Below the pieces are notes generated by a model. That model was given only the letters and a program-made list of their open reading frames with translations, had not been told where the DNA came from and did no database searches. Positions 10,570 through 57,290 of a DNA stretch of 64,000 bases are shown here, piece after piece. A program made the position numbers and the translations under genes. Position 1 is the stretch's first letter, and every line of letters begins with the position of its first letter. Source of the DNA: Octopus vulgaris. Taxonomy: Eukaryota. Location: contig OX597814.1 in the NCBI GenBank assembly GCA_951406725.2, positions 123,008,001 to 123,072,000 of the forward strand, written 5' to 3'.

Positions 10570-11175
10570 TTGGTTTCAAATTTTGGCATAAGGCCAGCAA
10601 GTTTAAGGGAGAGGTAAATAGATTACACCGACCTCAGTGTTCAACTGGTATTTATTTAATCGACTCCGAAAGTATGAAAGGCAAAGTCAACCTCGGCGAA
10701 ATTTGAACTCAGAACGTAAAGACGGACGAAATGCCGCTAAGTTTTCTGCCCGGCGTGCTACGATTCTTTTCTACTCTAGGCACAAGGCCCGAAATTTTGG
10801 GGGAGAGGGCCAGTCGATTATATCAACCCCAGTACGCAACAGGTACTTAATTTATCGACCCCGAAAGGATGAAAGGCAAAGTCGACCTCGGCGGAATTTG
10901 AACTTAGAACGTAAAGACGGACGAAATGCCGCTAAGTTTTCTGCCCGGCGTGCTACGATTCTTTTCTACTCTAGGCACGAGGCCCGAAATTTTGGGGGAA
11001 AGGGCCAGTCTATTATATAAACCCCAGTACGCAACTAGTACTTAATTTATCGACCCCGAAAGGATGAACGGCAAAGTCGACCTCGGCGGAATTTGAACTC
11101 AGAACGTAAAGACGTACGAAATGCCGCTAAATATTCTGCCAGGCGTGCTGACGATTCTGCCAGCTCGCAGCCTTC
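10570..11175 (-). mobile_element. SINE family B, head-to-tail trimer (period 195 bp)
   Basis: GTTTTCTGCCCGGCGTGCTACGATTC at 10741 and 10936; three copies of GAAAGGATGAAAGGCAAAGTCGACCTCGGCGGAATTTGAAC-like core. Confidence 0.85.
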
Positions 11176-17200: not shown

Positions 17201-17549
17201 GTGTATACACAAACACACACATATATATATAGATATATATATATATATATATCTTTATTGTTTTTACGTATTTTTGATTTTTTTTTTTTTTCGAGTAACA
17301 TCGTCCGTTTTTCCGTCACCGTGTTGTATACTTTCGAGGTTTTCTTCCAAGGAATCTAATGCGATTGGCTTAGATTTCCCTTGGGTGGCTGCCCAGATTG
17401 GAGCAATCTCAAGATTAATCAGCCGAAATTGCGAAGATGATCTGGTTCTTGACTGATGACTGAGAGCTTCGAAAGTCCCGTCTGTGTGTTTTTTTGCCGT
17501 CTTCAAAATGTTTCACGTTCTTGTCCCAGTTTGTGTTTTTTAACGTTTA

Positions 17550-19726: not shown

Positions 19727-21344
19727 CAGTGGCGGCCAAAATGTTCAGAACGGCATTGTTTTCGTCAGAAAAGTAGATATAATTTTTAATCAAAGTTGTT
19801 TTATATTCTATAATTTTAACAGACAATAAATACAATATTATTTGTTATTGCCGCCTGAGATTTTGGTGTAATTTGAGGAGATAATAATACAGTGATTTAC
19901 TGCAAAACCCGTGCCGGCCAAAATGATCAGAACGGTTGCTTTTACTCTGTGTTTTAGTATATTTAACAGGCGAACTCTAATGTTTTGAATTTGTTTACGT
20001 GACGGTTCGTTTACTAAACATTAGTAAGAATATCTGCAGTGTACTTTGTTAATATAATGCCACTTACTCCGTTACCAAATCGTCAGCAGATTATTAAGCT
20101 TCGAAGGAAGGATAATTTAAGTATTGGATCTATTGCAAAGATTGTTAACAAGTCAAAAAGTGTTGTACACGGTATTCTTAAGGTCTACGATGATTGTGGT
20201 TCGTGTGAAGCAAGAAAGTGTACAGGTAGGCCAAGAAAAACGACCAAGAGAGAAGATCGTGCTATGGTAAAGTTGGTTAAAAAGGACAGATTTAAAACTG
20301 CTGCTGCTGTTTCTCGGAAAATGAGCATTGTATTGAAGAAAACTTTATCTCGAAAAACTGTGTCTCATCGTTTAGTTGAACATGACCTACAAGCAAGAGC
20401 ACCTGCAGTGAAGCCATTGATCAGCTCCAAGAATAAAAAGTGTCGTCTTACCTTTGCAACCGAACATGTGTTGTGGTCTCAAGAAAAATGGCAAACGGTG
20501 CATTTCAGTGATGAATCTAAGTTTATGTTATTTGGCTCAGATGGGAAAAGGTACGTTCGTAGAAAAGTAGGTGAAAAATTGTCGCCTAAATGCTTTAAGA
20601 CTGGTGTTAAATTCGGTGGAGGAAGTGTCATGGTTTGGGGGATGATATCTGGAGATGGTGTGGGCTCTTTGGTGCGATTACATGGAAAGGTAAATGCAGG
20701 AGTTTATAAACAACTTGTAAAAGATCATGTCTTGCCTGTGCTGAGAAATTCAACTAAGCGACCACCCATATTCATGCAGGAGAATGCCCCATGCCACAAG
20801 GCTAAGGTGGTCATGAACTTCCTCAAGGCTGAAAAGGTTATTGTTATGGATTGGCCTGCTCAAAGCCCAGATCTCAATCCTATTGAAAATGTATGGAATA
20901 TTCTAGGAGAACGTTCGAAAGCCAGAAATCCTAAAACAACTGAGCAATTATGGAATGCCCTTCAGGAAGAATGGAATAAGATCACCCAGCAAGAAATTGA
21001 AAATTTAATTTCCTCATGCAGTCGAAGATGTCAGAGCGTGATTGAAGCTACTTTAGCTTCACACTAAATATTAAATAATTCCAGTATTCTCTGTCATTTT
21101 TTATTATTTTGTTATTTTTTTCAACCGTTCTGATCCTTTTGGCCGCCATGGGGTTTGCAGTAAATCACTAAATCATCCATAACTTTTGTATGATCCTCTC
21201 AAATTACACCAAAATCTCAGACAATAACAATTAATAGTGTATTTATTGTTGTGAAAACTATAGAATATAAAACTACTTTGATAAAAATTTATACTTACTT
21301 TTCTGACGAAAACAATGCCGTTCTGAACATTTTGGCCGCAACTG
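19727..21344 (+). mobile_element. Full-length Tc1-family transposon of IR/DR type (1618 bp)
   Basis: TA|CAGTGGCGGCCAAAATGTTCAGAACGG ... CCGTTCTGAACATTTTGGCCGCAACTG|TA; ~210-bp TIRs with inner direct repeats at ~19915 and ~21125. Confidence 0.95.
20057..21067 (+). CDS. Tc1 transposase (DD34E class; second D substituted by E)
   Basis: Paired-like HTH with GRPRK, VHFSDESKF, VMVWG, FMQENAPCH, WPAQSPDLNPIENVW; 34 residues between QE and PIE; first ATG at 20057. Confidence 0.9.
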   Translation: MPLTPLPNRQQIIKLRRKDNLSIGSIAKIVNKSKSVVHGILKVYDDCGSCEARKCTGRPRKTTKREDRAMVKLVKKDRFKTAAAVSRKMSIVLKKTLSRKTVSHRLVEHDLQARAPAVKPLISSKNKKCRLTFATEHVLWSQEKWQTVHFSDESKFMLFGSDGKRYVRRKVGEKLSPKCFKTGVKFGGGSVMVWGMISGDGVGSLVRLHGKVNAGVYKQLVKDHVLPVLRNSTKRPPIFMQENAPCHKAKVVMNFLKAEKVIVMDWPAQSPDLNPIENVWNILGERSKARNPKTTEQLWNALQEEWNKITQQEIENLISSCSRRCQSVIEATLASH

Positions 21345-31071: not shown

Positions 31072-31339
31072 ATAGACCTTCGAAACGTGGAGTAGATGAA
31101 ACAAAGGCGGCTGAAGAAGGGGAATTTTCCTTGTTTTGTATGTCCTGTGCTCTATTTTTTCGTTGTTTAAGAAAAATGTCCATTTCCTTGGTCTTGTGTT
31201 TATGTTTTCGTTTCTCATTGTGTTCGACGTTATTTTTGGGGGGTGTCCTGTATCCATATATGCATGTATATATACATGTAGAGGTAGGTACGTACATATA
31301 TGTACGTATATATGCATATGTTTTATTTATTTATTAATT

Positions 31340-31829: not shown

Positions 31830-33850
31830 AATATAAAATACTAAATAATAAGCTAAAATCTAGAAAACTCCCAGCATACTGGGATGAAGGATATAGAACG
31901 ACGACACTCAGTCCAGTAAGAAATACAATGGATTAGAATGGAATGCATTAGAAATATGTAATAACACTGCTGGCGTGATCCTCTATAGCCAGGGAGGAAT
32001 ATTCAGCAACGCAGTAAAGACTATAAAAACCAGAGATCTCCCAAAACTATCGACTTATAGTATTTTATAACCGACTGATTGATAATATCTTGCCGTGGAA
32101 GCAGAATTGGTATGAAAATGGGATAAATGGCTCAAAAGAACAATAGGTGTAAATCGGGAAATTTTTATAGACGGTTAGATGAGAAAACAAAACTTTTATG
32201 AAATACATTGATTACGAAAAGCTTACCACACTCTCAGATATTAGGAGAAACCGATTAATATGTACATTAGCTATATGGTACATGGCACATCAAAGTGAAA
32301 GTAACAATATCAGTGCGATGTAATGAGGTTATTAATGCCAATCCAATGACCATTAAAAGAGGGGATTTTCAAGAAAATCATTATTCTGTCTTCTGAATGA
32401 AAACCATCAATAGGTATAAATGTTATAAACAAATTTTAAACTGTTTACGATGGACAATACTTAAATGGATAACTTACGAAACATTGTTTATGAATTCAGC
32501 TGGATATATAAAATGGTATTGCCTAGGAAAATCTACCAAAGCTATTCTAAGTAGAAGGATATATTTTAAAACTGAAGACATTAAATTAAATTCAGACACT
32601 GAAATAAGCAATTACAAAAGACCCGTCTTTACAGGTACTTACGGAGAGATGAACCTCTTTAAGATATATAAAATGGTATCGCCTAGACAAATCAACCAAA
32701 GCTACTCTAAGTAAAAGGACATATTTTAAAACTGAGAAGTAAGGAATTTCAACCGTGTTTTGTGGTCTGCTACCACAACAGCTCCTTTATAGGATCCAGT
32801 TAGCTCAAGACATCATCAGGAGGAACCCCGTCCGGTTTCGGCCCCTACTCCTCTACCGTTTTGACGTGGCGACCCCCCTCCCCTTTCGGAGGTGTCTTCA
32901 TCTCTGGTGTTGAGTGCATGTCTCCTTTCTTCTTTCTTCTGTTCCCTGGCCTCTTCGATGTAGCGAAGATTCAGACACTGGAATAAGCAATTACAAAAGA
33001 TCAGTCTTTACAGGTACTTAGTGGGAGATGAACCTCTTTAAGATACAATAGTCAAATATGAAGAAGAAAAATAAGGAAAATTACTATAAGAAGTAGACTA
33101 TTGTTAAAACTGGATTCAAGTTTAGAAATACGGTAGTGATCTAAGTTTTAATTTTTAGCATTAATATAAACAAATTGGAAGTGTACTGAACATTTTAAAT
33201 AGAAAAACTATAAAACTATAAAGCCCATTATGTTAAGTTTGATATAGAACTCATATTCCTACTGGACCAACAAATAGAGAGAGATCTCATACAAAGAATT
33301 ATGACAAAGTAATCACATTAGTTAAAGGAAAATATTTTAAAACAAAAAAAGAAGTAAACTTACTTTAAAATGGAAAACGAAAAATTGTTTTTTTTTATAT
33401 ATATATAAATGATTGAACAAGAAATTATAAACAAGAAACTAATTACAACAAAGGAGAGGTTCGGGTAAGAATTGAAAAAAAACTCAAATTAAGTAAACAA
33501 CAAATGATAAAATCTAAGCAGAACGTCAAAACAAATATACCAAAAGGAGATCAAAAGACGGAGATCAACGCGGTAAAAGAGATCAAAGCTACATTGCCAG
33601 ATATCGCTATGAAAGACACTAGGGAATATTCAATACACTCAGATAGACATCTCAACATATTCCATCCAAAACGTCACTCAGAAGGAAGTCAAAAAACTAT
33701 TAAAGACCTCAAAATCGCAATAAGTAAGACATATGTGAAATTAGAATTGTTAGCAAGAATAATTAGCTCAGTGGGATTAATTAAAAATGGAAGCAAGGAC
33801 AAAAAAGATAAAAATCAAAGTATAGCCCGAAAACAAAATGTACTTACAAG
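31830..33850 (+). pseudogene. Heavily decayed R4/Dong-like reverse transcriptase region
   Basis: Ordered remnants LPWKQNWYENGINGSKEQ (cf. LPxEQxGxxxGxxGxKDQ), YIDYEK, MTIKRG/FQ, LFM, CLGKSTKA, YRYL; boundaries approximate. Confidence 0.5.
32737..32968 (-). mobile_element. GC-rich insert with a type II-topology HHR-like fold (32807-32845)
   Basis: Interrupts the second copy of a ~160-bp duplication; minus strand GGGGC-C-GAAA-CCGG-AC-GGG-gttc-CTC-CTGATGA-T-GTCTT. Confidence 0.5.
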
Positions 33851-53084: not shown

Positions 53085-53586
53085 TACAGGAAACTTATAC
53101 AGCATTCTGCTTAAATAATGGAACTGCAGATACAATACCCTTACATATCTCACGTCTGTTTTCATTCCTCCACTTTACTCTGTATTTCATATCTTCTCTA
53201 TAATAACTATTACTTAAGCATTTTCTCGCACCGTCTCGGAAACAGCTGTATGAACCTTCTCTTTTATAAATGGTCTGAAAACTATTCACACCCTTGTATT
53301 TTTTATCTCATTCTGGCAATTTATATATATATAATAGAAACAGGTTTCAAAGAAAAAAGATTACACGTGGTATAAATAGAGGAAAAGTAAAAAGAAATAA
53401 AGAAAATGTACATTAGGTAGAAATGTAATGGCTTTTTATATAAAAACAAAGATATATACATACAAATAAATGATTTGAGGTGGAATTAACAAGTATATGT
53501 CTTTGTTTTTATAAAAAAAAAGCCATTAACTTTATACCTAATGCGCTGTTACTTTGCTTCTTTTTACTTTTCTCCTATATATCTAT

Positions 53587-56357
53587 GTCTCGCTTTTATC
53601 CTTCGAAACGTTTAGTAGATGAAACTTTAGCGACTGAAGAAGGGGATTTTTCGTTGTGCTTATTGTCCTGTATCTCCTTTTTTTTTGCTTGTCTTGTTCC
53701 TTGGTTTGTGTCTATGTTTTTCGTCTCTCTATGTGTTCGACGTCCTTTTGGTGTCCTGTACACATATATGCGTGTATATGTACATGTAGAGGTAGGTACG
53801 TACATATATGTTTATATATATGCATATATTTTATTAACATATTATACGACTAAACGCACGCACCCTATTAAGTAAGATTGTTCTGTTTATCAAGTTCACC
53901 TTGATATTAACTCTCACGCGACTCTGCATCTTTCTTTCTTTCTTTCTCTCCCATTCCCTTTTTCGTCTTTTTTCCCTCACTTAACTTGTCTCTTCCTCTC
54001 TCTCTCTCCCCCTCACTGTTCTTCATGGTCTCCTCGCACCATTCCCCTTCTTCTCTCTCTTCCTCTTGCTCCTCCTCCCCCATTCCCGTCGTCCATCTGC
54101 GACGTACTTCCGTCGCAACTGCTGTCCCGTCCTTTCTTGCCTGCCTTCTAAGGCCACTGGTCGACATCTTCCTCTCTCGTCGTCCACTATAATCCAGCGT
54201 TTGCAATACTTTTTTCGTCTGGCGTTAACAGCCCTTCTTATCTTGTTCTCCTTGTCCTGTCTCTCACTGTTATATATTTATTTTTCCACTGTTTATATAT
54301 ATATTTTTTACTGTTTATATGTTTGTACTGTCGTTACCGTCTTGTTTTTTTTTTTACCCCTCTGCGACAAGATCTCAGAATTTTAATTGATTTGCTTTTC
54401 GCGGGAAGGAATTTTTCATTCGAAGTATACGTCTCGCTTTTATCCTTCGAAACGTTTAGTAGATGAAACTTTAGCGACTGAAGAAGGGGATTTTTCGTTG
54501 TGCTTATTGTCCTGTATCTCCTTTTTTTTGCTTGTCTTGTTCCTTGGTTTGTGTCTATGTTTTTCGTCTCTCTATGTGTTCGACGTCCTTTTGGTGTCCT
54601 GTACACATATATGCGTGTATATGTACATGTAGAGGTAGGTACGTACATATATGTTTATATATATGCATATATTTTATTAACATATTATACGACTAAACGC
54701 ACGCACCCTATTAAGTAAGATTGTTCTGTTTATCAAGTTCGCCTTGATATTAACTCTCACGCGACTCTGCATCTTTCTTTCTTTCTTTCTCTCCCATTCC
54801 CTTTTTCGTCTTTTTTCCCTCACTTAACTTGTCTCTTCCTCTCTCTCTCCCCCTCACTGTTCTTCATGGTCTCCTCGCACCATTCCCCTTCTTCTCTCTC
54901 TTCCTCTTGCTCCTCCTCCCCCATTCCCGTCGTCCATCTGCGACGTACTTCCGTCGCAACTGCTGTCCCGTCCTTTCTTGCCTGCCTTCTAAGGCCACTG
55001 GTCGACATCTTCCTCTCTCGTCGTCCACTATAATCCAGCGTTTGCAATACTTTTTTCGTCTGGCGTTAACAGCCCTTCTTATCTTGTTCTCCTTGTCCTG
55101 TCTCTCACTGTTATATATTTATTTTTCCACTGTTTATATATATATTTTTTACTGTTTATATGTTTGTACTGTCGTTACCGTCTTGTTTTTTTTACCCCTC
55201 TGCGACAAGATCTCAGAATTTTAATTGATTTGCTTTTCGCGGGATGGAATTTTTCATTCGAAGTATACGTCTCGCTTTTATCCTTCGAAACGTTTAGTAG
55301 ATGAAACTTTAGCGACTGAAGAAGGGGATTTTTCGTTGTGCTTATTGTCCTGTATCTCCTTTTTTTTTTGCTTGTCTTGTTCCTTGGTTTGTGTCTATGT
55401 TTTTCGTCTCTCTATGTGTTCGACGTCCTTTTGGTGTCCTGTACACATATATGCGTGTATATGTACATGTAGAGGTAGGTACGTACATATATGTTTATAT
55501 ATATGCATATATTTTATTAACATATTATACGACTAAACGCACGCACCCTATTAAGTAAGATTGTTCTGTTTATCAAGTTCGCCTTGATATTAACTCTCAC
55601 GCGACTCTGCATCTTTCTTTCTTTCTTTCTCTCCCATTCCCTTTTTCGTCTTTTTTCCCTCACTTAACTTGTCTCTTCCTCTCTCTCTCCCCCTCACTGT
55701 TCTTCATGGTCTCCTCGCACCATTCCCCTTCTTCTCTCTCTTCCTCTTGCTCCTCCTCCCCTATTCCCGTCGTCCATCTGCGACGTACTTCCGTCGCAAC
55801 TGCTGTCCCGTCCTTTCTTGCCTGCCTTCTAAGGCCACTGGTCGACATCTTCCTCTCTCGTCGTCCACTATAATCCAGCGTTTGCAATACTTTTTTCGTC
55901 TGGCGTTAACAGCCCTTCTTATCTTGTTCTCCTTGTCCTGTCTCTCACTGTTATATATTTATTTTTCCACTGTTTATATATATATTTTTTACTGTTTATA
56001 TGTTTGTACTGTCGTTACCGTCTTGTTTTTTTTACCCCTCTGCGACAAGATCTCAGAATTTTAATTGATTTGCTTTTCGCGGGAAGGAATTTTTCATTCG
56101 AAGTATACGTCTCGCTTTTATCCTTCGAAACGTTTAGTAGATGAAACTTTAGCGACTGAAGAAGGGGATTTTTCGTTGTGCTTATTGTCCTGTATCTCCT
56201 TTTTTTTTGCTTGTCTTGTTCCTTGGTTTGTGTCTATGTTTTTCGTCTCTCTATGTGTTCGACGTCCTTTTGGTGTCCTGTACACATATATGCGTGTATA
56301 TGTACATGTAGAGGTAGGTACGTACATATATGTTTATATATATGCATATATTTTATT

Positions 56358-56361
<4 letters not shown>
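53587..56361 (+). mobile_element. Tandem array, ~3.3 copies of an ~840-bp non-coding unit; probable Penelope-like/retrozyme multimer
   Basis: GTCTCGCTTTTATCCTTCGAAACG at 53587, 54431, 55269 and 56109 (periods 844, 838, 840); near-identical units; ends in (TA)n; relatives at 31072 and 56688. Confidence 0.7.
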
Positions 56362-56401
<40 letters not shown>

Positions 56402-56405
<4 letters not shown>

Positions 56406-56610
56406 GTTAATCCAAACATGAAAGCACAAAAAAACACAACAACGCGAGGACGTGGAACAAATATAGTATTATTGGACGCTCAGGAAAGAAGGAGTGTTTA
56501 ACGTTTCGAGCGGAGCTCTTCGTCGGAAACATAGGAGATGGAAAGATCCAGAGAAGGGAAGACAGAGGGAAAAAATCGCCAACGGTACACACGCGGTCAC
56601 ATTTTGAATG
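56402..56610 (-). mobile_element. Short (TA)n-flanked insert with minimal HHR at 56495-56531 (CCGACGA variant)
   Basis: TGTTT-CCGACGA-A-GAGC-tcc-GCTC-GAAA-CG-TT-AAACA. Confidence 0.7.
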
Positions 56611-56689: not shown

Positions 56690-57290
56690 GCATATATGGG
56701 TACAGGATGTCACCAACAGTAAACAACATGAAATACGAATACAAATGAGTTCAATACGCAAACAACGAGAGAAACAAATGGAAAACAGGTCAGGTAACAT
56801 AAAGAATGACCCTTCATCAGTTGTTGGCTGTCTATCTACTCCTCGTTTCGAGTATTGAACGACAATATGAGTCTTCGAAGACAGTTGCTCCCATAAGTAC
56901 CCAAATAAAATTTGGGATTTATGGAGGGTCAAAGCTGGGAACAAAAACAGGACAGAGGAGACATACAAGGAAACCGAATGAAAACAAACGTGGGTCGTTA
57001 GACCAGAACGAGTGTAAAATAGTGAACGCGGGAGAAATATTTTCTTCGGTAAGAGAAAAGATAGAAGAGAGATAGAATATGTTCAGTCCATAGGACGTCC
57101 TGCAGGAAAAGAAAGATGGTCACGTGAGGAAAAAAATGGATGATGGTCACGTGTGAGGAACGAGAGGGAGAAAAAGAGAAAGAGAAGAGAGACAGATAGA
57201 AAACGGTGAAGGGGATATAGTGAGGTTCTTTCATATATAACAGCGTTATATATGAGAGAACCTGACTATATCTAAAATATCCTGGCACGA
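56688..57290 (-). mobile_element. Diverged relative of the 840-bp family, opposite strand
   Basis: Minus strand TTCGAAG..CTCGAAACGAGGAGTAGATAG..CTGATGAAGGG..CATCCTGTACCCATATATGCATG parallels the array unit; far boundary uncertain. Confidence 0.6.

Follow-up and report, generated by a model that had tools for sequence, protein, structure and literature searches.

Hammerhead ribozymes in which the conserved blocks follow one another in reverse order have been described by Eckert et al. (2023; PMC10085705) as the non-circularly permuted type-SGC (HRIMA-1) and type-CSG. According to the parts of that paper available to us, reverse-order hammerheads cleave in vitro, and these types come from metatranscriptomes and metagenomes, with one weak GCS case in a known organism. 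Among mobile elements, metazoan non-LTR (non-long terminal repeat) retrozymes are non-coding tandem units of 150–450 bp with one type I hammerhead each; in the sections consulted, their circular RNA is demonstrated, and circularization of type I retrozyme RNA is attributed mostly to a protein ligase (PMC7229834). They depend on a Penelope-type reverse transcriptase (RT) (bioRxiv 10.64898/2026.07.22.740005, in part). According to the accessible portion of Craig et al. (2021; PMC8557442), the Naiads lack a canonical hammerhead, and Naiad_Ovul is flagged as having half a core. Insertions into the hammerhead core are given as one or two letters only in the text seen of PMC3088659.

Here, we analyzed 64,000 nucleotides (nt) of Octopus vulgaris DNA (contig OX597814.1, positions 123,008,001 to 123,072,000; hereafter the window, to which all positions refer). 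The window contains a tandem array of an ~840-nt non-coding repeat, a Penelope-like element, inserted in TA repeats (53586–56365, + strand). Each full unit contains a hammerhead-type motif with reverse strand order and a core interrupted between A9 and G10.1, which probably cuts itself after C17 (C54433 in unit 2).

The repeat and its motif

The motif GAAAC-N5-GTA-N16-CTGANGA, noted in the original prediction, was indeed found at the places named: six matches in the window, against 0.02 expected, starting at 31082, 53605, 54449, 55287 and 56127 on the + strand and at 56849 on the − strand. A tighter form of the pattern gave 3,307 matches across the 2.8-Gb genome, compared to 2 for a reversed control. 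Four of the six copies are units of the one array, are 99% alike, represent a single insertion event and do not count as independent of one another. Two copies, at 31076 and 53586, are truncated at the 5′ end, with most of the upstream half gone. An Rfam scan of the window returned no hammerhead among the 150 of 353 matches listed, which were low-complexity, microRNA-type and sub-threshold, and a structure descriptor fitted none of the 12 metagenome loci and at least 120 viral loci listed. Relatives of the repeat were present in contigs from three other organism labels, and contigs of four sequencing runs, presumably of RNA, covered the 840-nt unit, although assembled contigs reveal neither RNA ends nor strand nor circles. 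Among the runs on record, none listed as RNA contained the repeat.

The array comprises three whole units and a 5′-truncated first unit that starts ~3 nt before the predicted cut. A full unit is 800–840 nt long, lacks a coding open reading frame (ORF), and ends at a common 3′ end ~230 nt past the motif; this 3′ anchor had 3,461 matches in the genome. Copies sit at (TA)n sites and show 5′ truncation, partial tandems and inverted 5′ pieces. All of these are features of Penelope-like elements (PMC8557442, in part), as are an optional 3′ tail and AT-microsatellite targets, which the repeat has as well. The host is a non-coding, TA-targeted, retrozyme-like Penelope-like repeat of ~840 nt. In a young subfamily, identical copies are found on several chromosomes. 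The units of one array share private changes that are absent from other arrays, a pattern that fits copying round a circle, but also a tandem template that was uniform from the outset. An imperfect inverted repeat of ~200 nt (53375–53575) lies directly 5′ of the array.

The predicted split-core ribozyme

The complete predicted ribozyme of unit 2 spans 54356–54490 (+), as judged from pairing, covariation and conservation, and thus extends further in the 5′ direction than the 54414–54500 originally proposed. It begins with the 5′ strand of helix X (54356–54361), followed by hairpin Y (54362–54404), the stem II 10.x strand (54405–54409, with G10.1 at 54405) and the 5′ strand of helix P0 (54414–54420). 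The 5′ side of an internal loop (GAA, 54421–54427) leads into the substrate strand TACGTC/TCGCT (54428–54438), which comprises the stem III 16.x strand (54428–54432), C17 (54433) and the stem I 1.x strand (54434–54438). The G block (54444–54456) includes the stem II 11.x strand (54444–54448), GAAA (54449–54452) and the stem III 15.x strand (54452–54456). After the other side of the loop (AGUA, 54458–54461) and the 3′ strand of P0 (54462–54468) follow the stem I 2.x strand (54473–54477), the CUGAAGA core (54478–54484) and the 3′ strand of helix X (54485–54490). The blocks therefore run S-G-C, and not in the cyclic S-C-G order of hammerhead types I, II and III.

This arrangement rests on pairings with upstream strands. 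The strand before CUGA had been proposed to pair downstream; however, the best of 16 downstream windows gave 70% Watson–Crick pairs, compared to 94.5% upstream, where the subfamily line-up shows UCGCU/AGCGA, UCGCC/GGCGA and UUGUC/GACAA (stem I). Likewise, the strand after GAAA pairs just upstream as UACGU/ACGUA, UGCGU/ACGCA and CAUGU/ACGUG (stem III). Together, these two pairings place the NUH triplet at GUC 54431–54433, and hence the predicted cut at 54433/54434. The stem II 11.x strand pairs upstream as CCUUC/GAAGG, with the equivalent UGCUC/GAGCA in subfamily F, and the original CTTC/GGGG is the weaker of two options. The letters 3′ of CUGANGA form helix X with a strand that lies 90 nt upstream, and hairpin Y spans the gap to G10.1. 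Since the 10.x strand of stem II lies upstream, X and Y interrupt the backbone between A9 and G10.1. The substrate strand, the GAAGG partner and helices X and Y had no counterpart in the original prediction.

Covariation was assessed in an alignment of 22 hand-picked rows across subfamilies. Stems I and III were 96.8% paired, with two-sided changes in 5 of 10 pairs; none of 500 shuffles equalled both the percentage paired and the covariation score, although such counts are not probabilities, because the rows are related. Taken together, X, Y and the upstream stem II were 90.9% paired (9 of 15 pairs with two-sided changes), while slid controls reached 43–57%. Individually, the values were 83% for X (3/6 pairs two-sided), 97.7% for Y (3/4) and 94.5% for stem II (3/5), and both X and Y occur in the minimum free energy fold. 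The downstream stem II was 74.5% paired, mainly by G-U, with two-sided change in one pair. A genomic sample contained 149 distinct instances, 78 with an intact 5′ part; two with a shifted stem I were dropped, leaving 76. In these, Watson–Crick pairing was 94.7% for the upstream stem II (43.4% for a best-of-16 control), 94.5% for stem I, 82.9% for stem III and 88.4% for helix X, the last being the best of 26 windows.

Helix P0 corresponds to upstream pairings that had been proposed before (TTTCATT/GATGAAA and CTGTC/GATAG) and that are borne out, covarying between subfamilies. By eye, its strands pair as UUUCAUU/GAUGAAA, UGUUUCAUU/GAUGAAACA and AAUUUCAUU/GAUGAAAUU, and in further subfamilies as CUGUUUCA/UGAAACAG and CUGUCU/AGACAG; P0 is also present in the fold. 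The GAA/AGUA loop between P0 and stem III, 98.5% conserved in 49 copies, resembles a sarcin-ricin or loop-E motif. No k-turn register for this loop suited all subfamilies, and helices of the spacer or of the upstream AAGGA with the U-rich 3′ flank were inconsistent among subfamilies, in both cases as judged by eye.

All letters of the hammerhead core (C3 U4 G5 A6 N7 G8 A9, G12 A13 A14, A15.1-U16.1 and H17) are present, and stems I, II and III all abut the core, stem II through its upstream strand. As a check on conservation, 49 copies were chosen by the 3′ anchor rather than by the motif, all of them running on for 100 nt or more beyond the site. The 11 core letters were 98.9% conserved, compared to 87.6% and 90.8% for the flanks, and an NUH triplet was present at the predicted cut in 75 of the 76 copies.

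The genome also records where copies begin. Among the first 100 3′-anchor matches on one contig, 97 could be mapped, and 16 of these had their 5′ end between −2 and +12 of the predicted cut, where the rate in the flanks would predict 1.7 (Poisson P ~4e-11). None of the 97 started between −20 and −3. In subfamily G, 20 of 30 copies had 5′ ends at −2 to +14, including two precisely at the predicted cut (this sample, like those of subfamily F and Naiad considered below, was picked by motif, so that ends beyond +14 would not be visible). Because many genomic copies thus start just past the predicted cut, the split-core ribozyme is likely to cut itself.

The other copies in the window vary in completeness. 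The ribozyme of unit 3 (55194–55328, +) differs at one position, where T replaces A in the 10.x strand of stem II (55245), and that of unit 4 (56034–56168, +) is intact. A subfamily D copy (31076–31336, +) has its 5′ end ~7 nt past the predicted cut, and an older subfamily F ribozyme (56808–56930, −) forms equal helices in other letters.

Comparison with type-SGC and alternative readings

As far as the available text of PMC10085705 allows a comparison, the octopus ribozyme shares with type-SGC the reverse block order, all core letters, a link of a few nt between stem I 1.x and stem II 11.x, and a helix that connects stems I and II at their outer ends, the equivalent of which is P0. It differs in that block C of type-SGC is contiguous with the stem II strand, whereas in the octopus the 10.x strand is upstream, with X and Y between A9 and G10.1; in type-SGC, CUGAnGA leads directly into stem II 10.x, while here the upstream partner is clearly better. 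Furthermore, all three inter-block links are covalent, unlike in type-SGC and type-CSG, and the octopus form exists in thousands of retroelement copies. Compared to the retrozymes, as described in the same partial text of PMC7229834, the repeat likewise has non-coding tandem units with one hammerhead each, a proposed circular RNA intermediate and a presumed need for a Penelope-type RT, but its unit is ~840 nt and its core is split and in reverse order. Literature searches, which were thin on subscription papers and did not include the Eckert and bioRxiv supplements, returned no animal genome with a hammerhead in reverse order or with a split core, and the literature searched contained no description of the X-Y wiring.

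Several observations weigh against a self-cutting, split-core hammerhead. The published six-permutation scheme assumes CUGAnGA and its flanking strands to be contiguous (PMC10085705, in part), which a break at A9/G10.1 contradicts. The covariation comes from about eight related subfamilies, largely from F versus all others; the 22 rows were picked by hand, and the young A/B group accounts for 34 of the 76 copies. In subfamily F, C15.2 and A16.2 are mismatched. The folding z-score of the whole motif was −0.25 for the window copy in a pseudoknot-free model. Fifteen of the 16 clustered 5′ ends lie 3–12 nt past the site and not at it, and most of them adjoin TA repeats, so that microhomology or stalling could contribute. 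Of the 73 copies that reach the predicted cut, 57 read through it, and ends at the site were seen in just 5 of 25 subfamily F and 2 of 25 Naiad copies. The hammerhead of a Poseidon element was dispensable for insertion in vitro, according to the portion of PMC11167929 available. Finally, an autonomous element with this motif was not found in the searches described below.

It is unlikely that the motif is a plain type-SGC ribozyme, with stem II formed by the downstream GGGG after an extra A, and X, Y and GAAGG belonging to an off-state or post-cleavage fold. Such wiring is validated in the text seen of PMC10085705, C11.1 has a G partner in 20 of the 22 rows, and four pairs can form. However, two of the four are mostly G-U, two-sided change occurs in one pair compared to 3 of 5 upstream, the G run is already used by helix X in Watson–Crick pairs, and in Naiad the downstream register offers about two pairs, against six upstream. 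We also consider it improbable that the motif is a non-cutting hammerhead descendant, a protein-binding or RT-pausing fold whose 5′ ends arise from RT stalls or TA microhomology. The smear of ends 3–12 nt past the site and the many read-through copies would suit such a fold, as would the finding that a sublineage with U for C11.1, giving a G-U at the base of stem II, has nonetheless spread to at least three loci (L028, L111 and L263). Insertion by PAc in vitro did not need hammerhead cleavage (PMC11167929, in part). On the other hand, the catalytic letters and the NUH are kept while the flanks drift, and ends at −20 to −3 are absent from the unbiased sample; moreover, an RT that has arrived at 1.x would already have copied the strands that pair with 1.x and 16.x, which presumably leaves little to stall on.

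A cut at GUA 54459–54461 by a type II-like hammerhead, as first envisaged, is very improbable. In every row AC could pair with GU round a 5-nt loop, and AGUA is conserved, but the 16-nt spacer yields no stem I (paired in 0 of 110 cells, as the original prediction had itself recognized), the whole model is 52.9% paired over the 22 rows, and the AC is taken by the 5-bp covarying upstream stem III. AGUA is instead one side of the conserved internal loop opposite GAA, and a single 5′ end among the 97 copies fell within +27 to +41, with no pile-up. The broader suggestion of a hammerhead-like motif that is not a standard type II and may have a new topology agrees with our results, as does the expectation that core letters would be more conserved than flanks. 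The idea of two half-ribozymes survives solely as a possible domain-swapped dimer.

Assuming that the split-core, self-cutting reading is correct, non-circularly permuted ribozymes would move from environmental RNA into animal genomes, in thousands of copies, and a wiring would be added that the six-permutation scheme excludes by assumption. It would also explain why descriptor searches reported Naiads without hammerheads. The role of hammerheads in Penelope-like elements becomes testable, with the genome itself recording the position of the RNA cut, and a hammerhead with clamped products could serve circular RNA production.

Related families, enzyme partners and a proposed cycle

A letter-free general descriptor of the wiring fitted six places in the window and none in 20 window shuffles. 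One of these (17330–17480, +, GAAA at 17425) is a sequence-unrelated repeat with X-Y-II-P0-III-I wiring and relatives at loci L003 and L125; a third family (~32790–32900, −, GAAA at 32839) has a like wiring with a short hairpin Y. By eye, both families have X and Y. We take the junction of P0 with stem III to be a k-turn in Naiad and in the 17425 family, and an A bulge in the 32839 family, again by eye. The S-G-C motif occurs in yet a fourth sequence form at L054:1640–1700 (+), where the copy starts at the predicted cut, beside a TA repeat.

The X-Y-II-P0-III-I layout is also present in the 3′ ends of octopus Naiads (Naiad_Obim and Naiad_Ovul), with a weak X and a stem II of six pairs in the upstream register. 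This Naiad motif had 171 genome matches, and RT remnants were found upstream in 2 of 20 fetched copies. The 840-nt repeat resembles Naiads in (TA)n targeting, 5′ truncation, and tandem and inverted copies, as given in the portion of PMC8557442 consulted, but it has no ORF and therefore lacks the Naiad ORF with its N-terminal GIY-YIG and RT, so that only the ribozyme design is common. By inspection, with no alignment made, the 3′ ends show no visible likeness beyond this design. The families also differ in the loop (GAA/AGUA as opposed to the presumed k-turn) and in preservation: Naiads are decayed in this genome (109 matches in an RT search, the longest open frame being 263 aa), whereas identical copies of the 840-nt family occur on several chromosomes.

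No autonomous partner emerged from 40 loci of two DNA searches, from tblastn of the gathered loci, or from the Naiad RT search, and none of 20 GIY-YIG loci had the 840-nt repeat as its own 3′ end. Among loci L001–L164, four ORFs neighbor the repeat; the two inspected both look nested. The likeliest enzyme donor is a Penelope-like family with RT and C-terminal GIY-YIG (for example, L061 and L066), in which a 781-aa frame was found in 16 of 148 GIY-YIG matches. Counting against this role, its relatives end in a type I-like hammerhead of their own. The family was probably active recently and has internal tandem repeats in the 3′ region. At L060, L064, L065, L071 and L073, the type I-like hammerhead 3′ of the GIY-YIG frame has U3/A8 for C3/G8. 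Another repeat end in the window (56403–56608, −; also at L060 and L071) has a hairpin and then GAAAC, and resembles a type I hammerhead whose core has changed. At L071:1060–1130, an inverted copy of the 840-nt family, cut within the ribozyme core, directly adjoins a truncated RT/GIY-YIG ORF, with no microsatellite between them; this junction is possibly a template switch, although one case proves little.

From these data we infer the following cycle. X and Y would hold A9 against the G10.1-C11.1 pair to give the usual hammerhead core, and cleavage would occur after C17 by standard hammerhead chemistry. Tandem read-through transcripts would be cut once per unit, yielding unit-length RNA whose ends, held by X, II, P0 and III, may be circularized by the ribozyme or by a host ligase. 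A Penelope-type RT/endonuclease would nick (TA)n and begin copying inside the RNA, ~230 nt past the ribozyme; internal initiation by a Penelope-type protein has been shown for PAc (PMC11167929, in part). On linear RNA, the RT would run off near the cut end and leave short copies, while on circles it would continue round and produce uniform tandem arrays.

In such a fold, the arm of stem III, loop and P0 presumably has to fold back on the core and reach stems I and II at their outer ends, a geometry problem also raised for some SGC ribozymes in the text seen of PMC10085705. As the loop of the 840-nt family appears loop-E-like and not a k-turn, this calls for either a bend at the loop or a swapped dimer; a monomer bent at the loop and a domain-swapped dimer with a straight loop seem about equally probable. 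More tentatively, and on balance doubtfully, the octopus form might be a fourth opening of the reverse-order hammerhead, in which all three block links are closed and the RNA ends enter the core between A9 and G10.1. Its four-helix clamp would then be built for re-ligation and self-circularization, it would be the missing ribozyme of Naiad-type elements and of several unrelated octopus repeats, and the straight loop-E that replaces the k-turn would make it an obligate domain-swapped dimer that senses tandem copies.

Elsewhere in the window, a 349-aa frame at 20018–21064 (+) encodes a Tc1/mariner transposase (HTH_Tnp_Tc3_2 and DDE_3), and a 195-bp unit resembling a short interspersed element (SINE) is present in 2.6 tandem copies at 10642–11158.
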